A DNA stretch of 62,544 bases, the filler included, from Candidatus Zapsychrus exili (GTDB lineage Bacteria > Omnitrophota > Gorgyraeia > Zapsychrales > Zapsychraceae): assembly GCA_030765585.1 (NCBI GenBank). It is 5 parts of 5 records of this genome, joined end to end, with 100 filler letters (N's around TTAATTAATTAA, not from the genome) between each part and the next. Parts side by side here need not be neighbours in the genome. Positions count along the whole stretch, not along the records: positions 1 to 28,441 come from JAVCCJ010000021.1; 4 more parts are not named here. One strand, given 5' to 3'. Of the stretch, positions 7,347 through 59,513 are shown one piece after another. The position numbers were made by a program, and so were the translations under genes. Below the pieces are notes generated by a model. The model saw only the letters and a list, made by a program, of their open reading frames with translations, made no database searches and had not been told where the DNA came from. Every line of letters begins with the position of its first letter. The stretch's first letter is position 1.

Positions 7347-8618
7347 ATGTATAAAAAAGAAACCTTATCTAACGGCATAAGAGTTGTGACTAATAATATA
7401 AAACAAAGAGATAGCATTGCTCTAGGTTTTTGGATTGGTGCAGGCGGTCGCTATGAAGAAGATTCGCAAAAAGGAATTGCGCATTTTCTAGAACATATTG
7501 TGTTTAAAGGAAGTCAGAAGTATTCTTGTAGTCAGATAAAAGAACTTATTGAAGGCGTGGGAGGCACTCTTAATGCCTTTACATCAGAAGAGCAAACTTG
7601 CTTTTATGCAAAAATCCCCTCTAAACACATTGATAGTACTTTTGATGTTCTTTCAGACATGACGTTTTATCCAAGAATTAAGCCTACTGATATAGAAAAA
7701 GAGAAGGGTGTTATAGTTGAAGAAATAAAAATGTATCGTGACCTTCCGCAGTATTTTGTTATGGAACTTTTAGATGGGCTTCTTTGGCCTGATCATCCAC
7801 TGGGAAAGTTTTTAGCAGGCGATCCTAAAACAGTATTAAATTTAACGAAGAGTGATATAAATAAATTTCATAAGACTTATTATAATCCTAGCAATATTGT
7901 TGTTTCTGCATGCGGCTCTTTAGGTCACAAGAGAATAGCTGCTTTAACAAAAAAGAAGTTAGGTGTAATGAAGAACGCTAGAAAGAGCGAGTATTTAAAG
8001 GTAGGGGAAACGCAGGACAAACCTAGGTCTTTGTTCTTTAGGAAAGATATTGAACAAATGCATCTAGCGCTAGGTATTCCAGCTTTAGATGAAAACCATA
8101 AGGATAGAAATGTTTTAAATATGCTTAGTACGATCTTAGGCGGAAATATGTCTAGCAGGCTTTTTGTTGAGGTAAGAGAGAACAAGGGATTAGCATATTC
8201 CATTTCATCATCTTTTAAGGCTCTTCATGATACAGGGATGTTTATGGTTCGCGCTGGTATTGAGGTTGGGCGCACAGAAGAAGCTGTTGGGGTAATACTG
8301 AAGGAGCTAGACAAGATTACACGCCTTGGGGTTAATGCTTCAGAATTTAGAAGAGCTAAAGATTATCTGTTGGGACAGCTTTTACTTGGGCTTGAAGATA
8401 CTATGGATAACATGCTTTGGCTAGGAGAGTCAGTTATTGCGAGAGATAAGATAAAAACTATAAAGATGTTGATTTCTGAGTTCGATAAGATCAAAATAGG
8501 TGATATAAAGCGCGTCGCTAAGAATATATTGGATAAGAATAAATATAATTTAGCAATTGTTGGACCTGTTACTGAAAAGCAAGAAAAGTCTTTAAACAAA
8601 CTACTTTCAATAAAATAG
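7347..8618 (+). CDS. M16 (pitrilysin) family zinc peptidase
   Basis: Inverted zincin motif HFLEH, LNAFTS and SSRLFVEVRENKGLAY. Confidence 0.95.
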   Translation: MYKKETLSNGIRVVTNNIKQRDSIALGFWIGAGGRYEEDSQKGIAHFLEHIVFKGSQKYSCSQIKELIEGVGGTLNAFTSEEQTCFYAKIPSKHIDSTFDVLSDMTFYPRIKPTDIEKEKGVIVEEIKMYRDLPQYFVMELLDGLLWPDHPLGKFLAGDPKTVLNLTKSDINKFHKTYYNPSNIVVSACGSLGHKRIAALTKKKLGVMKNARKSEYLKVGETQDKPRSLFFRKDIEQMHLALGIPALDENHKDRNVLNMLSTILGGNMSSRLFVEVRENKGLAYSISSSFKALHDTGMFMVRAGIEVGRTEEAVGVILKELDKITRLGVNASEFRRAKDYLLGQLLLGLEDTMDNMLWLGESVIARDKIKTIKMLISEFDKIKIGDIKRVAKNILDKNKYNLAIVGPVTEKQEKSLNKLLSIK

Positions 8619-8655
8619 TATATTAAAAAAGACAAAAAGTAAGCGTGTTTTACAA

Positions 8656-8684
8656 TTGACAAGACGAAGATTATGAGATAGACT
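8656..8684 (+). promoter_or_regulatory. Sigma70-type promoter of the 56-aa ORF
   Basis: TTGACA (8656-8661), 17-nt spacer, TAGACT (8679-8684). Confidence 0.65.
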
Positions 8685-8728
8685 CATAACAATATTTAAA
8701 ACAACATTGATTAAAATAGGAGGTAACG

Positions 8729-8899
8729 ATGGAAGAATTGTCATTTTACGATGTAAAGACTAAAGCAAAATTCACCGCAACTGAATATGATGTAAGAGAA
8801 AAAAGTGGAAGATTTTTCGCTGTTACTAAATCACAAGCTGGAACTCACGAATGTTGGAGAGTTTTAGGCAAAGAACAAGCTGCAAAATTAAAACAATAA
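8729..8899 (+). CDS. 56-aa small basic protein, putative Cc1-like chromatin/nucleoid protein (absent from the ORF track)
   Basis: AGGAGGT RBS at 8718-8724. Translation: MEELSFYDVKTKAKFTATEYDVREKSGRFFAVTKSQAGTHECWRVLGKEQAAKLKQ. The coding call is firm; the family call is from recalled similarity. Confidence 0.8.
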   Translation: MEELSFYDVKTKAKFTATEYDVREKSGRFFAVTKSQAGTHECWRVLGKEQAAKLKQ

Positions 8900-8961
8900 T
8901 AGATTTAGGCCTTTCATAAATAGCCTTTGCGTTTCTTTTATTTGGAAAGGATGTTTCAAGT

Positions 8962-9324
8962 ATCGTTAAAGTAGATTTAACTTCAAGAAATACAGCCAAA
9001 TTAATCGCTAAGTTTGCATCTGACAAAAAATCTGAGGATATTATCATCTTAGATATGCGTGATATTGTAAACTTTTGCGATTATTTTGTAATCTGTTCAG
9101 GTAATACTGAAAGACAAGTTCATGCGATTGCTAACGGTATTGATGAAGGATTAAGTGTTGCTGGGACTCATCTTAAACGCAATCAAAAACTAAAGAAGTC
9201 AGATTGGATAGTTTTTGATATGGGAGATGTGGTTACCCATATTTTTCAGAAGGATTTGAGGGAATTCTACAAATTAGAGTATTTGTGGCAAGAAGCTAAA
9301 AAGGTAAAGTGGGAAAGTACATAG
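8962..9324 (+). CDS. rsfS: Ribosome silencing factor RsfS (Iojap); N-terminus extends upstream of the called ATG at 9055
   Basis: DKKSEDIIILDMR...DYFVICSG...WIVFDMGDVVTHIF...REFYKLEYLW. The ATC start at 8962 is inferred. Confidence 0.9.
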   Translation: MVKVDLTSRNTAKLIAKFASDKKSEDIIILDMRDIVNFCDYFVICSGNTERQVHAIANGIDEGLSVAGTHLKRNQKLKKSDWIVFDMGDVVTHIFQKDLREFYKLEYLWQEAKKVKWEST

Positions 9325-9350
9325 AGATATTGTAAGAAGAAGAATTATAG

Positions 9351-11015
9351 ATGTTAAATGATTTAAAAACACAAATACAAGTATGTTTAGAACAAGCCTT
9401 TAAACAGGCATATCCTTGCCTAGATTCATTACCAGAAATTCAAATAGAAACACCTGCTGATAAAGCGCACGGAGAGTTTTCGTGCAATGTAGCGCTTAAG
9501 TCTGCAAAGCTGCTTAAGAAATCTCCTCTAGAGATAGCCCAAACTATAATTGAAGTTTTAGATAAGTCGAACTCTCTTAAAGACAAAATATCAAAAACAG
9601 AAATAAAAGCACCTGGATTCATAAATTTCTTTATAGCAAAGACAAGCTTATATGAAATTCTTTATGACATTTCTGAAAAAGGTGATAATTATGGAAAATC
9701 TGATTTTGGCAAGTCTCAAACAGTACAGATAGAATTTGTTAGTGCTAATCCTACTGGGCCTTTAAGTGTTGCTCATGCAAGACAGGCAGTTGTCGGAGAT
9801 GTTCTTGCTAGCATATTGAACTTTACAGGGCATAAGGCGAGTAAAGAATATTATATAAACGATGGCGGAAATCAAATAAATATATTAGGTAATTCTGTAA
9901 GAGCACGGGCCCTTGAGATACTTGGTGGTGAAATTGATTTTCCTGAAGACGGATATCAGGGCGAGTATATAAAGGATATGGCTCAGCTTTATATCGACAA
10001 TAATAAGATAAAAGATACAAAGGGTTTAGACTCAACAAAAGATGCAGATATTTCTAAGTGGGCATCTGAATATCTTCTAGATGTTATAAAAAAAGATCTC
10101 AATGATTTTAGAGTTGAATTTGATTGCTGGTCGTATGAGTCTAAGATAGCAACGAAGGATAAAATAAAAGATATTTTAAAAGAGCTTAAAGGCAAAGACT
10201 TAATTTATGAAAAAGATGGAGCTCTTTGGTTTAAGTCAACGAATTTTGGTGATGACAAAGATAGGGTTGTGCAAAAGTCTGATAGTAGCTTTACTTATTT
10301 GGCCCCAGACATTGTTTATCACAAAGATAAATTTGATAGAGGCTTTAGTCGTCTTATAAATATTTGGGGGCCTGATCATCATGGATACATCCCAAGGATT
10401 AAAGCAGCAGCACAGGCTTTAGGCAAGGATAAAGAGGCGCTAGAGGTTTTAATAGTGCAGCTGGCAACAATATATAAAGATGGAAAAGTGCTCTCTATGT
10501 CTACAAGGCGTGGTCAGTACATTAGCTTACGTGAAGTTATTGATGAGGTTGGTATTGACGCTGCTAGATTTTTCTTTCTTATGCGTCATATCAAGGTTCA
10601 TTTAGATTTTGATTTAGAGTTAGCAAAAAGGCAAACGCCAGAAAATCCGGTGTATTATATTCAGTATGCATATGCAAGGATCAATAGCATAAGCAAAAAG
10701 GCAAAAGAAGTAGGATTAAAAGAACGAAAGTCTAAATTATCAAAATTAGCAGAGAAAGAAGAGTTAGACCTAATAAAAAAACTTGGAGAATTTGAAAATT
10801 CTCTTAAATTTTGTTGTGAGCAATTGCATCCATATCCGCTATTAAGTTATTTGCAAGAGCTTGCAAATGTATTTCATAGCTTTTATGATAAGCATCGTGT
10901 TGTAGATACGGATGTAGATTTATCCTCTGAAAGGTTAACTTTAATAAATGCTGCTAAAGTTGTTTTAGCTAATGGCCTTCGTCTTTTAGGAGTAACTATT
11001 CCCGAAAGAATGTAA
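9351..11015 (+). CDS. argS: Arginine--tRNA ligase
   Basis: EFVSANPTGP HIGH-like region, GPDHHGY, MSTRRG and YIQYAYARI; ends PERM. Confidence 0.97.
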   Translation: MLNDLKTQIQVCLEQAFKQAYPCLDSLPEIQIETPADKAHGEFSCNVALKSAKLLKKSPLEIAQTIIEVLDKSNSLKDKISKTEIKAPGFINFFIAKTSLYEILYDISEKGDNYGKSDFGKSQTVQIEFVSANPTGPLSVAHARQAVVGDVLASILNFTGHKASKEYYINDGGNQINILGNSVRARALEILGGEIDFPEDGYQGEYIKDMAQLYIDNNKIKDTKGLDSTKDADISKWASEYLLDVIKKDLNDFRVEFDCWSYESKIATKDKIKDILKELKGKDLIYEKDGALWFKSTNFGDDKDRVVQKSDSSFTYLAPDIVYHKDKFDRGFSRLINIWGPDHHGYIPRIKAAAQALGKDKEALEVLIVQLATIYKDGKVLSMSTRRGQYISLREVIDEVGIDAARFFFLMRHIKVHLDFDLELAKRQTPENPVYYIQYAYARINSISKKAKEVGLKERKSKLSKLAEKEELDLIKKLGEFENSLKFCCEQLHPYPLLSYLQELANVFHSFYDKHRVVDTDVDLSSERLTLINAAKVVLANGLRLLGVTIPERM

Positions 11016-28441: not shown

Positions 28442-28541
28442 NNNNNNNNNNNNNNNNNNNNNNNNNNNNNNNNNNNNNNNNNNNNTTAATTAATTAANNN
28501 NNNNNNNNNNNNNNNNNNNNNNNNNNNNNNNNNNNNNNNNN
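28442..28541. other. Artificial contig linker
   Basis: N run around TTAATTAATTAA (stops in six frames). Confidence 0.99.
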
Positions 28542-29131
28542 AGCTTTCCGAAAGATTCAGAAGCCAATGGATTAAGGTAAAGTTTTATAGAGACAAGCCG
28601 GATTTAAATGGTGCTAAAAGGTTAAAAAACGTAAGATTTTGTGAGGCAACCAAGGAAGCTATTACGCATCCTATTATTTTGGACAGAAACAGTATATCCT
28701 GTCCAGGAGCTCAGCGTGCTTTTGGATGGAAGAGTGAGCATGAAAACGGACTTTTAGAGAACTGTAGCGATAAACAACAAATCAAAAAAAGTGCTTTAAA
28801 ATCAATGCTTTCTGAGGTGCCGCATTTTAATAAACCTTTTAAGTATATAGGATTAAATACTGATGGAGAGCCAGATCTTGTTATGTCATATTTGGCTCCT
28901 TCTGATGTTATGGATTTTGTAAAGATATTCAATAATAAATGCGGTAAAAATCTCGAATGTTCATTATGCAGCATGATGTCAATCTGTGGCGGCATAGCAG
29001 CAACAACTTATTTAAATAAGAATATTAATATTTCTTTTGGGTGTAATGACTCGCGCAGATTGGCAGATATGAAAAGAGATAATTTGGCTATAGGCATCCC
29101 AAATAGATTATTTAAGGTATTTATTGATTAG
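28542..29131 (+). CDS. DUF169 family protein, 5'-truncated
   Basis: Frame open to the contig edge; RFCEA, SCPGA..AFG, CGG and SFGCNDSR. Confidence 0.75.
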
Positions 29132-35909: not shown

Positions 35910-36009
35910 NNNNNNNNNNNNNNNNNNNNNNNNNNNNNNNNNNNNNNNNNNNNTTAATTAATTAANNNNNNNNNNNNNNNNNNNNNNNNNNNNNNNNNNN
36001 NNNNNNNNN
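35910..36009. other. Artificial contig linker
   Basis: N run around TTAATTAATTAA. Confidence 0.99.
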
Positions 36010-52793: not shown

Positions 52794-52893
52794 NNNNNNN
52801 NNNNNNNNNNNNNNNNNNNNNNNNNNNNNNNNNNNNNTTAATTAATTAANNNNNNNNNNNNNNNNNNNNNNNNNNNNNNNNNNNNNNNNNNNN
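52794..52893. other. Artificial contig linker
   Basis: N run around TTAATTAATTAA. Confidence 0.99.
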
Positions 52894-59413: not shown

Positions 59414-59513
59414 NNNNNNNNNNNNNNNNNNNNNNNNNNNNNNNNNNNNNNNNNNNNTTAATTAATTAANNNNNNNNNNNNNNNNNNNNNNNNNNNNNNN
59501 NNNNNNNNNNNNN
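59414..59513. other. Artificial contig linker
   Basis: N run around TTAATTAATTAA. Confidence 0.99.

Follow-up and report, generated by a model that had tools for sequence, protein, structure and literature searches.

The window, which is the whole stretch of DNA that was analysed (62,544 nucleotides, filler included), is made up of contigs of the Candidatus Zapsychrus exili genome separated by runs of N. A gene encoding a protein of 56 amino acids lies within one of these contigs, of 28,441 bases (C14), and is present as a single copy in the host genome (2.04 Mb, 96% complete, 34% GC). The gene is flanked by an M16 peptidase on one side and by rsfS and argS on the other (Table 1), an arrangement that was given in a preliminary description of this DNA and is confirmed here by Pfam matches, and recJ follows argS in the same neighbourhood. 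The reading frame of rsfS is open from the first base listed in Table 1, and its first canonical start is found at position 9055.

Table 1. Features of the locus of the 56-residue protein, with positions counted along the whole window.
Feature	Position	Strand	Remarks
M16 peptidase, upstream neighbour	7347..8618	+	Pfam PF00675 and PF05193; upstream in 38 of the best 80 loci
-35 hexamer, TTGACA	8656..8661	+	Conserved upstream in Omnitrophota-type loci
-10 hexamer, TAGACT	8679..8684	+	17 nt spacer after the -35 hexamer
Shine-Dalgarno sequence, AGGAGGT	8718..8724	+	4 nt 5' of the ATG
CDS of 56 aa, putative zinc-free CC1-like small basic protein	8729..8899	+	ATG start, TAA stop; five strands and a C-terminal helix in the model
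rsfS, downstream neighbour	8920..9324	+	Pfam PF02410 from profile position 22; directly downstream in 51 of the best 80 loci
argS	9351..11015	+	Pfam PF00750, PF05746, and PF03485; present in 49 of the best 80 loci

The encoded protein has a mass of 6474 Da and a pI of 9.21, with 11 lysines and arginines against eight aspartates and glutamates (net charge +3), and a single cysteine (C42). The promoter and the ribosome-binding site were already part of the preliminary description, and the comparison of related loci bears both of them out. The 8400-9400 region has eight promoter-like sites, against 4.3 +/- 2.0 in shuffled sequences, and a promoter match within the window alone is weak evidence in AT-rich DNA. 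Upstream sequence of 100 nt or more is present for 52 of the 53 Omnitrophota-type loci, and in these, by contrast with a background of 10 matches in the 725,280 bases of the same loci (0.0028 per 200 nt), the pattern TTGACA-17-TAnnnT is found within 200 nt upstream of the start in 47, with the -10 hexamer reading TAGACT, TAAACT, TACACT, TAGAAT, or similar, and GGAG is found 3-16 nt 5' of the start in all 52. The reading frame is a real gene, which would be transcribed independently. The C-ending codons, which had been taken as a sign of high expression, are a weak argument for it, given that four of the 10 codons for F, Y, H, N, D, and C end in this base, against a genome mean of 0.189, a bias that is not significant (binomial P = 0.10).

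Conservation and distribution of the family

A search of public genomes with a 12-row alignment as the query recovered 177 stretches that code for a relative, of which the best 80 were retained. By record title, these 80 loci comprise 51 from Omnitrophota, 13 from Bacteroidota, 12 from archaea, and four others. Many of the Omnitrophota loci are labelled "uncultured Planctomycetales" in the records.

Of the 53 Omnitrophota-type loci, 51 have the gene directly upstream of rsfS-argS-recJ, and the other two end at a contig edge; the M16 peptidase, trpA, and trpB usually precede it. Across the syntenic loci, the identity to the window protein is 68-91%, in comparison with 37-71% for rsfS, 51-63% for argS, 48-62% for recJ, 50-62% for the M16 peptidase, and 68-79% for trpB, which makes the small gene the best-conserved of its neighbourhood. 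The conserved synteny, together with an identity above that of the neighbouring genes, excludes both contamination, which had been judged unlikely from the position of the gene within a single contig, and a chance reading frame.

The family is large. All 834 candidates retrieved from a collection of 5.8 billion proteins are relatives at E <= 0.01, and the best 120 of these 834 are 75-100% identical to the window protein, with those that carry a name being called "hypothetical protein". An exhaustive phmmer search of cluster representatives gave 67 matches at E <= 1e-3, among them a WD40 protein, which was taken for a false positive and excluded from the alignments. Of 3649 candidates for a DPANN-type profile, 1660 proteins were matched at E <= 0.001. 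The members are 48-67 amino acids in length and follow the consensus LxFYDVKxKxKFxxxxYxxxxKxGRxFAVxKSPxGxxECWRxLxK, in which K10 and K12 (numbered as in the window protein) are invariant in the 12-sequence alignment. The single 56-residue sequence had no match in Pfam (E <= 10), in NCBIfam, or in a sequence search of the PDB, which was also the case for the family profile in the PDB, for any of 45 family members in Pfam, and for the family in PADLOC and PHROGs.

The distribution of the family is patchy. It was detected in 14 of the 201 genomes sampled from Omnitrophota, that is, in all 10 genomes of the host's own order and in four genomes that represent three further families of its class, and was not found in the remaining genomes of this sample. 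It was also detected in 27 of the 401 DPANN genomes sampled. The Bacteroidota loci are truly bacterial, and in one of them, for example, the family gene has a family-4 glycosyltransferase gene (PF00953) on one side and murD on the other. A locus titled Dojkabacteria may be mis-binned, given that an archaeal DUF424 gene adjoins the family gene, which groups with the DPANN rows in the family tree. This tree (106 rows, 57 columns) has little resolution; a single supported clade takes in 12 of the 13 Bacteroidota rows, and the archaeal rows, which are the most diverse, are scattered over at least three places. Such a pattern would fit several transfers between the domains, at a resolution too poor to name the donor. 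A tblastn search of phage and plasmid collections found no relative.

The steady position in front of rsfS, which encodes a ribosome silencing factor, and argS is what keeps alive the main rival to a role in chromatin, namely that the product is a small RNA-binding or ribosome-associated protein, involved in translation or ribosome hibernation, with its barrel in contact with rRNA or some other RNA. Small basic proteins derived from zinc ribbons are common among the parts of the ribosome. The lack of an intrinsic terminator 3' of the gene, where none was found before rsfS and the sequence folds no better than its shuffles (z 0.21), is also consistent with this role, as is the presence of DUF424 directly downstream in three of 15 non-Omnitrophota loci examined, once with the ribosomal protein L15e adjoining. 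These positions, next to rsfS-argS and, in some DPANN loci, to DUF424 or L15e, would suit a role in translation no less well. The conserved promoter of the gene's own argues against it, however, as do the low counts in Omnitrophota and DPANN, which are unlike those of a ribosomal part, and the synteny itself, which is not common to the loci outside Omnitrophota among the best 80 of the 177. On this balance, and on that of the fold comparisons below, a translation-related role appears unlikely, and a role in the binding of DNA is preferred here.

Probable relationship to Cc1 and to the zinc ribbons

The preliminary description had likened the protein, from end to end, to Cc1, a small archaeal chromatin protein. 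Hocher et al. (2022; PMC7613761) describe the Cc1 of Thermoproteus tenax as a protein of 56 amino acids with a pI of 10, and state that, given the lack of an HMM for Cc1, its homologues were collected by jackhmmer from the UniProt entry G4RKF6 at E <= 1e-5. Table S1 of that study holds 230 CC1 rows, and its rows include proteins from Thermoproteales, Desulfurococcales, Thaumarchaeota, and Bathyarchaeota, as well as proteins of 48-76 amino acids from Woesearchaeota and Pacearchaeota (PMC7613761).

The link between this published set and the window protein runs through a DPANN homologue, a reading frame of 67 amino acids from the sample of 401 DPANN genomes, which is 53% identical to the window protein over 53 ungapped residues (E 3e-22) and matches the family profile at E 7.3e-27. 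Its length and pI (9.76794) coincide with those of the CC1 row PIN74733.1 (67 amino acids, pI 9.76795, E 6.5e-15), a coincidence that would not be significant if it stood singly, with some 30 comparisons made at a collision rate of 1.5-4.2%. The only Alba reading frame of the same DPANN genome (102 amino acids, pI 5.66249) also coincides with the Alba protein PIN75058.1 (102 amino acids, pI 5.66251), which is the only other row for that assembly in Table S1. Given this double match within one genome, of a Cc1 homologue and an Alba, the DPANN protein is very likely to be the listed Cc1 homologue PIN74733.1, as judged from the length and pI fingerprints. The fingerprints of 310 proteins from the family searches and of further loci gave no match to the Cc1 rows that were compared.

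Because this DPANN protein is listed there and is 53% identical to the window protein, the window family would be the one that was counted as Cc1 homologues in the Cc1-seeded search, which is an indirect route to membership, as the published set was built by iterative jackhmmer and could have drifted. The window protein is most probably, therefore, a member of the CC1 family as this family has been drawn in print. The proposed resemblance to Cc1 holds to this extent, by way of the DPANN homologue, but the solved fold that it clearly matches is that of Cren7.

A second relationship, to the DUF5679 zinc ribbons (PF18930), was suggested by a protein-atlas search, in which the lead was a cluster (score 0.89) where 17% of the members carry DUF5679. 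Twelve DUF5679 proteins of 46-56 amino acids, with the pattern CxxC...CxxC, were aligned and compared with the family by hhalign. The alignment is full-length and collinear (P 0.074 and 0.0022 for two family alignments, at a probability of 0.75-12.9%), and places D8 and T11 of the window protein at the first CxxC, whereas S35 and G38 fall at the second by manual reading of the alignments. In the same register, the DUF5679 relatives have lysines at the positions aligned with K10 and K12. The signal is weak, though above that of the controls. A DUF5679 HMM scored at least 5 bits on 12 of the 45 family members and at least 10 bits on three, against 16 and none, respectively, of 1845 shuffled or reversed controls, and the highest score across the HMMs of the two groups was 14.7 bits. 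The model of a DUF5679 protein (pLDDT 85) has five strands, and the first row of its fold list is Cren7 (Z 4.0), level with the zinc ribbon of NrdR (Z 3.9).

These comparisons point to a family that is probably a DUF5679-type zinc ribbon without its four zinc-binding cysteines. At E <= 1, none of the 45 family members matches PF18930, and no cysteine-bearing intermediates were found among 310 proteins from the family searches. DUF5679 itself was not found in the host genome (E <= 10) or in five carrier genomes, and exceeds the cut-off in 40 of the 151 genomes of another sampled phylum.

Predicted fold and likely function

The AlphaFold (AF2) model, built from 45 sequences (pLDDT 87.1), has five strands and a C-terminal helix. 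Foldseek returned nothing from the PDB at E <= 0.001, with the 53BP1 Tudor domain as its best match (E 0.43). In an alignment-based comparison with 48,161 PDB representatives, one entry only reached Z >= 5, a Cren7 bound to double-stranded DNA (4r55_A), which superposes on 51 of 53 residues at an rmsd of 2.2 A with Z 5.9, and the next row was at Z 3.9. A Z below 8 may mean no more than a similar arrangement, and function does not follow from a likeness of fold. In a second look, the top eight entries were all Cren7 (Z 5.5-5.9), followed by Tudor domains at Z 3.4, with Sac7d and Sso7d at Z 2.6-3.0. A Cren7-like five-stranded SH3-like barrel is thus predicted, and the match extends over the full domain, clearly separated from the other entries. 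To this extent the comparison with an archaeal chromatin protein in the preliminary description is borne out by the model, with Cren7 as the sole solved counterpart.

The weaker matches to this model bear on two other explanations of the protein. The ribosomal protein L44e and other zinc-ribbon ribosomal proteins are found among them (Z 2.5-3.3), which speaks for a role in translation, although the best match, by a clear margin, is the DNA-bound Cren7, and the characterised namesake, CC1, has been reported to bind both single- and double-stranded DNA (PMC4200833, which cites Luo et al. 2007). The Tudor, chromo, and SH3-like domains that fill the list below Cren7 (Z 2.5-3.4) would suit a specific regulator, or a small SH3- or Tudor-like adaptor that binds another protein or a peptide, in which the likeness to chromatin proteins would be one of shape only. 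The mild basicity of the window protein may be read in the same way, and one relative is fused to a defence-type TIR domain, in which the small domain could have a sensing role. The family has no conserved partner gene across the phyla, however, and no counterpart in PADLOC or PHROGs. The invariant K10 and K12, the lysines of the zinc-ribbon relatives, and the lysine-rich tails of some fusions fit the binding of nucleic acids better, and the adaptor or regulator appears improbable, even more so than the role in translation.

The fusions offer further hints of the binding of nucleic acids. In two relatives, the domain is found behind lysine-rich tails of the KKxxAKK type, with membrane segments, and in three others it follows N-terminal stretches that are coiled-coil-like by eye, for which Pfam gives weak, sub-threshold matches. 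Kaur et al. (PMC5906684) describe Cren7 domains behind CdvA-like coiled coils. The binding of nucleic acids is the favoured reading of the Cren7-like model, the K10 and K12 residues, the lysine-rich and coiled-coil-like fusions, and the DNA binding reported for CC1. Candidate residues for a binding face are K10, K12, K14, R28, K34, W43, and R44.

On this reading, the product would be a mildly basic, all-beta protein of 6.5 kDa that would have arisen from a DUF5679-type zinc ribbon by the loss of its four cysteines. Its family, which is large and has no name, is found in one order and a few further families of Omnitrophota, in Bacteroidota, and in DPANN archaea. Without zinc, the product would close into a Cren7-like barrel of five strands, and its most likely function would be the binding of nucleic acids without sequence specificity, of DNA in the first place, as an accessory nucleoid protein beside HU. 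A rough probability of 55% is assigned to this main reading, of a DNA-binding accessory nucleoid protein of the CC1 type with a Cren7-like barrel, in which the DNA binding, the abundance, and the membership of Cc1 are all presumed.

The extent of such a role is limited by HU. The HU gene (PF00216) is present in the host genome, on contig C71 (223-492), in all 14 of the carrier genomes, and in 195 of the 201 Omnitrophota genomes. A strong conserved promoter and Shine-Dalgarno sequence, together with an extreme conservation of sequence, might be expected of the main chromatin protein of the lineage, in replacement of the HU system, but the presence of HU in these genomes makes such a replacement very improbable. 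As HU is found in every one of the 14 carriers, the small protein does not replace it, and would be, at most, an additional nucleoid protein. The one published estimate of abundance for the Cc1 homologues of a mesophile puts the two of Nitrosopumilus maritimus at 0.071% and 0.025% of the proteome (PMC7613761), and this scarcity, like the modest pI of the window protein, argues against a major role in the chromatin. The suggestion of the preliminary description, that a bacterial lineage may use an archaeal-type chromatin protein in its nucleoid, is thus strengthened in part, by a real and constrained gene with its own promoter and a predicted fold of the archaeal chromatin type, and is narrowed by the retention of HU in all 14 carriers.

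A wider scenario, in which the CC1-type protein works as a second nucleoid protein in one Omnitrophota order, and in Saprospiraceae and other Bacteroidota, having moved several times between DPANN archaea and bacteria while staying 65-80% identical, is possible, if rather doubtful. Bacteria would then have, at the side of HU, a working small barrel chromatin protein of the archaeal style, the first for which this is known. The usual chromatin proteins of bacteria are HU/IHF, H-NS, Fis, and Dps. Two papers of 2018-2020 (PMC7325993, PMC5906684) regard Cren7, Sul7d, and CC1 as inventions of the archaea, for the most part of Crenarchaeota, and still call CC1 crenarchaeal. No paper on bacterial members of the family was found in a search that omits most subscription journals, and the motifs FYDVK, FYDLK, and FYDIK had no occurrence in the literature searched.

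If the protein binds DNA, the CC1-type chromatin proteins would be extended to the bacteria, and the family would provide a second, independent conversion of a zinc ribbon into a zinc-free DNA-binding barrel, in a protein of 56 residues that would be an easy target for biochemistry. If it does not, the family still ranks in conservation near the top of the small unannotated proteins in these uncultivated lineages. It comprises well over a thousand sequence clusters with no family name, annotated at most as "hypothetical protein", is more conserved than the adjoining aminoacyl-tRNA synthetase, and is common to the DPANN archaea and to bacteria of two phyla or more.

Comparison with known systems

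HU (PF00216) is the usual nucleoid protein of bacteria. Like HU, the window protein would bind DNA without specificity and be abundant, if this role is correctly assigned. The two folds are unrelated, and HU is present alongside the 56-residue protein in every carrier.

The window protein resembles the CC1 of T. tenax (UniProt G4RKF6) in its length, which is the same 56 amino acids, and in being a basic, beta-rich protein of about 6 kDa (6474 Da and pI 9.21, with five strands in the model). It differs in its host, which is a bacterium with a mesophile-type genome of 34% GC, and in its lower pI (9.2 rather than 10). Only the T. tenax protein is known to bind single- and double-stranded DNA and to be highly abundant. 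With Sul7d, Sac7d, and Sso7d, the window protein would have in common a small size, basicity, a beta-barrel that serves in chromatin, and a helix at the C terminus, although the fold match is weak (Z 2.6-3.0), and no sequence similarity to these proteins was detected.

The likeness to DUF5679 (PF18930) lies in the full-length collinear alignment, the similar size, the five strands, and the Y-x-V-K-x-K-x-K start and G-R/K middle that are common to both. The window family differs in the replacement of all four cysteines, and none of its members reaches the Pfam threshold.

The comparison with Cren7 (PF11520; PDB 4r55, 6a2i, 3lwi, and 2jtm) is primarily one of structure. There is no sequence relationship between the two, with 6-8% identity in the structural alignments, and PF11520 had no match to the window protein or in the host genome, in a search in which the Sulfolobus control was matched. 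The model also has an extra C-terminal helix. The predicted fold, nevertheless, superposes on that of Cren7 over 51 residues at 2.0-2.4 A, the proteins are of similar size, and both are zinc-free barrels thought to be derived from zinc ribbons. Kaur et al. (2018; PMC5906684) propose that Cren7 arose from a zinc ribbon through the loss of its metal site, and the family described here looks, by analogy, like a second case of this route from zinc ribbon to barrel.

The start of rsfS

When the ORF is called from the ATG at 9055, the Pfam RsfS match begins only at profile position 22, on the third residue of that ORF, and the approximately 45 codons that precede this ATG in the rsfS frame resemble the N-terminus of RsfS. 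No ATG, GTG or TTG is present among these ~45 upstream codons. The rsfS gene probably either starts at a non-canonical codon or encodes an RsfS with a shortened N-terminus.

Coordinates of the rsfS frame and contig joins in the window, and of the DUF424 genes in public-genome loci (L)
Feature	Location	Strand	Remark
rsfS	8920-9324	+	reading frame open from 8920
N run	28442-28541		contig join in window
N run	35910-36009		contig join in window
N run	52794-52893		contig join in window
N run	59414-59513		contig join in window
DUF424 (PF04242)	L064:4196-4489		directly downstream of small gene
DUF424 (PF04242)	L070:4350-4643		directly downstream of small gene
DUF424 (PF04242)	L076:4200-4490		directly downstream of small gene

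Contigs and codon usage of the genome

The window is composed of the separate contigs C14, C20, C22, C23 and C28, linked by paired N runs. Contig ends share a repeat, since a 40-base probe taken from window position 28601 was found on two contigs of this genome, C15 and C20. Elsewhere, six of the 16 ORFs that top the genome for their share of C-ending two-fold codons lie on contig C48 (14502-46603), which could mean that highly expressed genes are grouped there, or that the composition of this region is foreign.

Titles and neighbours of the relatives

The records titled “uncultured Planctomycetales bacterium” (loci L003, L004, L008, L015, L025, L029, L033, L043, L051, L061 and L072) share with those titled Omnitrophota the same complete order, trpBA-M16-small gene-rsfS-argS-recJ, and the rows of the two groups are intermixed in the family tree. 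The Planctomycetales titles are probably the result of coarse automatic labelling.

In three loci, the small gene is followed directly by a member of DUF424, an archaeal family of unknown function, which precedes the gene of ribosomal protein L15e in L064. Locus L070 is titled Dojkabacteria, and may be a mis-binned archaeal contig, given this archaeal neighbour and its clustering with the DPANN rows in the tree. In the DPANN genome G389, the family gene is present twice with identical sequence (C14:11-193 and C11:550-732), on short contigs of 4052 and 3726 bases; either the gene was duplicated recently or the assembly contains it in duplicate.

Longer proteins carrying the small domain

The small domain also forms the C-terminal part of some longer relatives. 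It is preceded by membrane segments and long Lys-rich tails in P0154, P0175 and P0130, and by N-terminal stretches that appear coiled-coil-like by eye, with only weak, sub-threshold Pfam matches, in P0168, P0181 and P0185. In P0170, a defence-type TIR_2 domain (E 1.4e-25) occupies this position.
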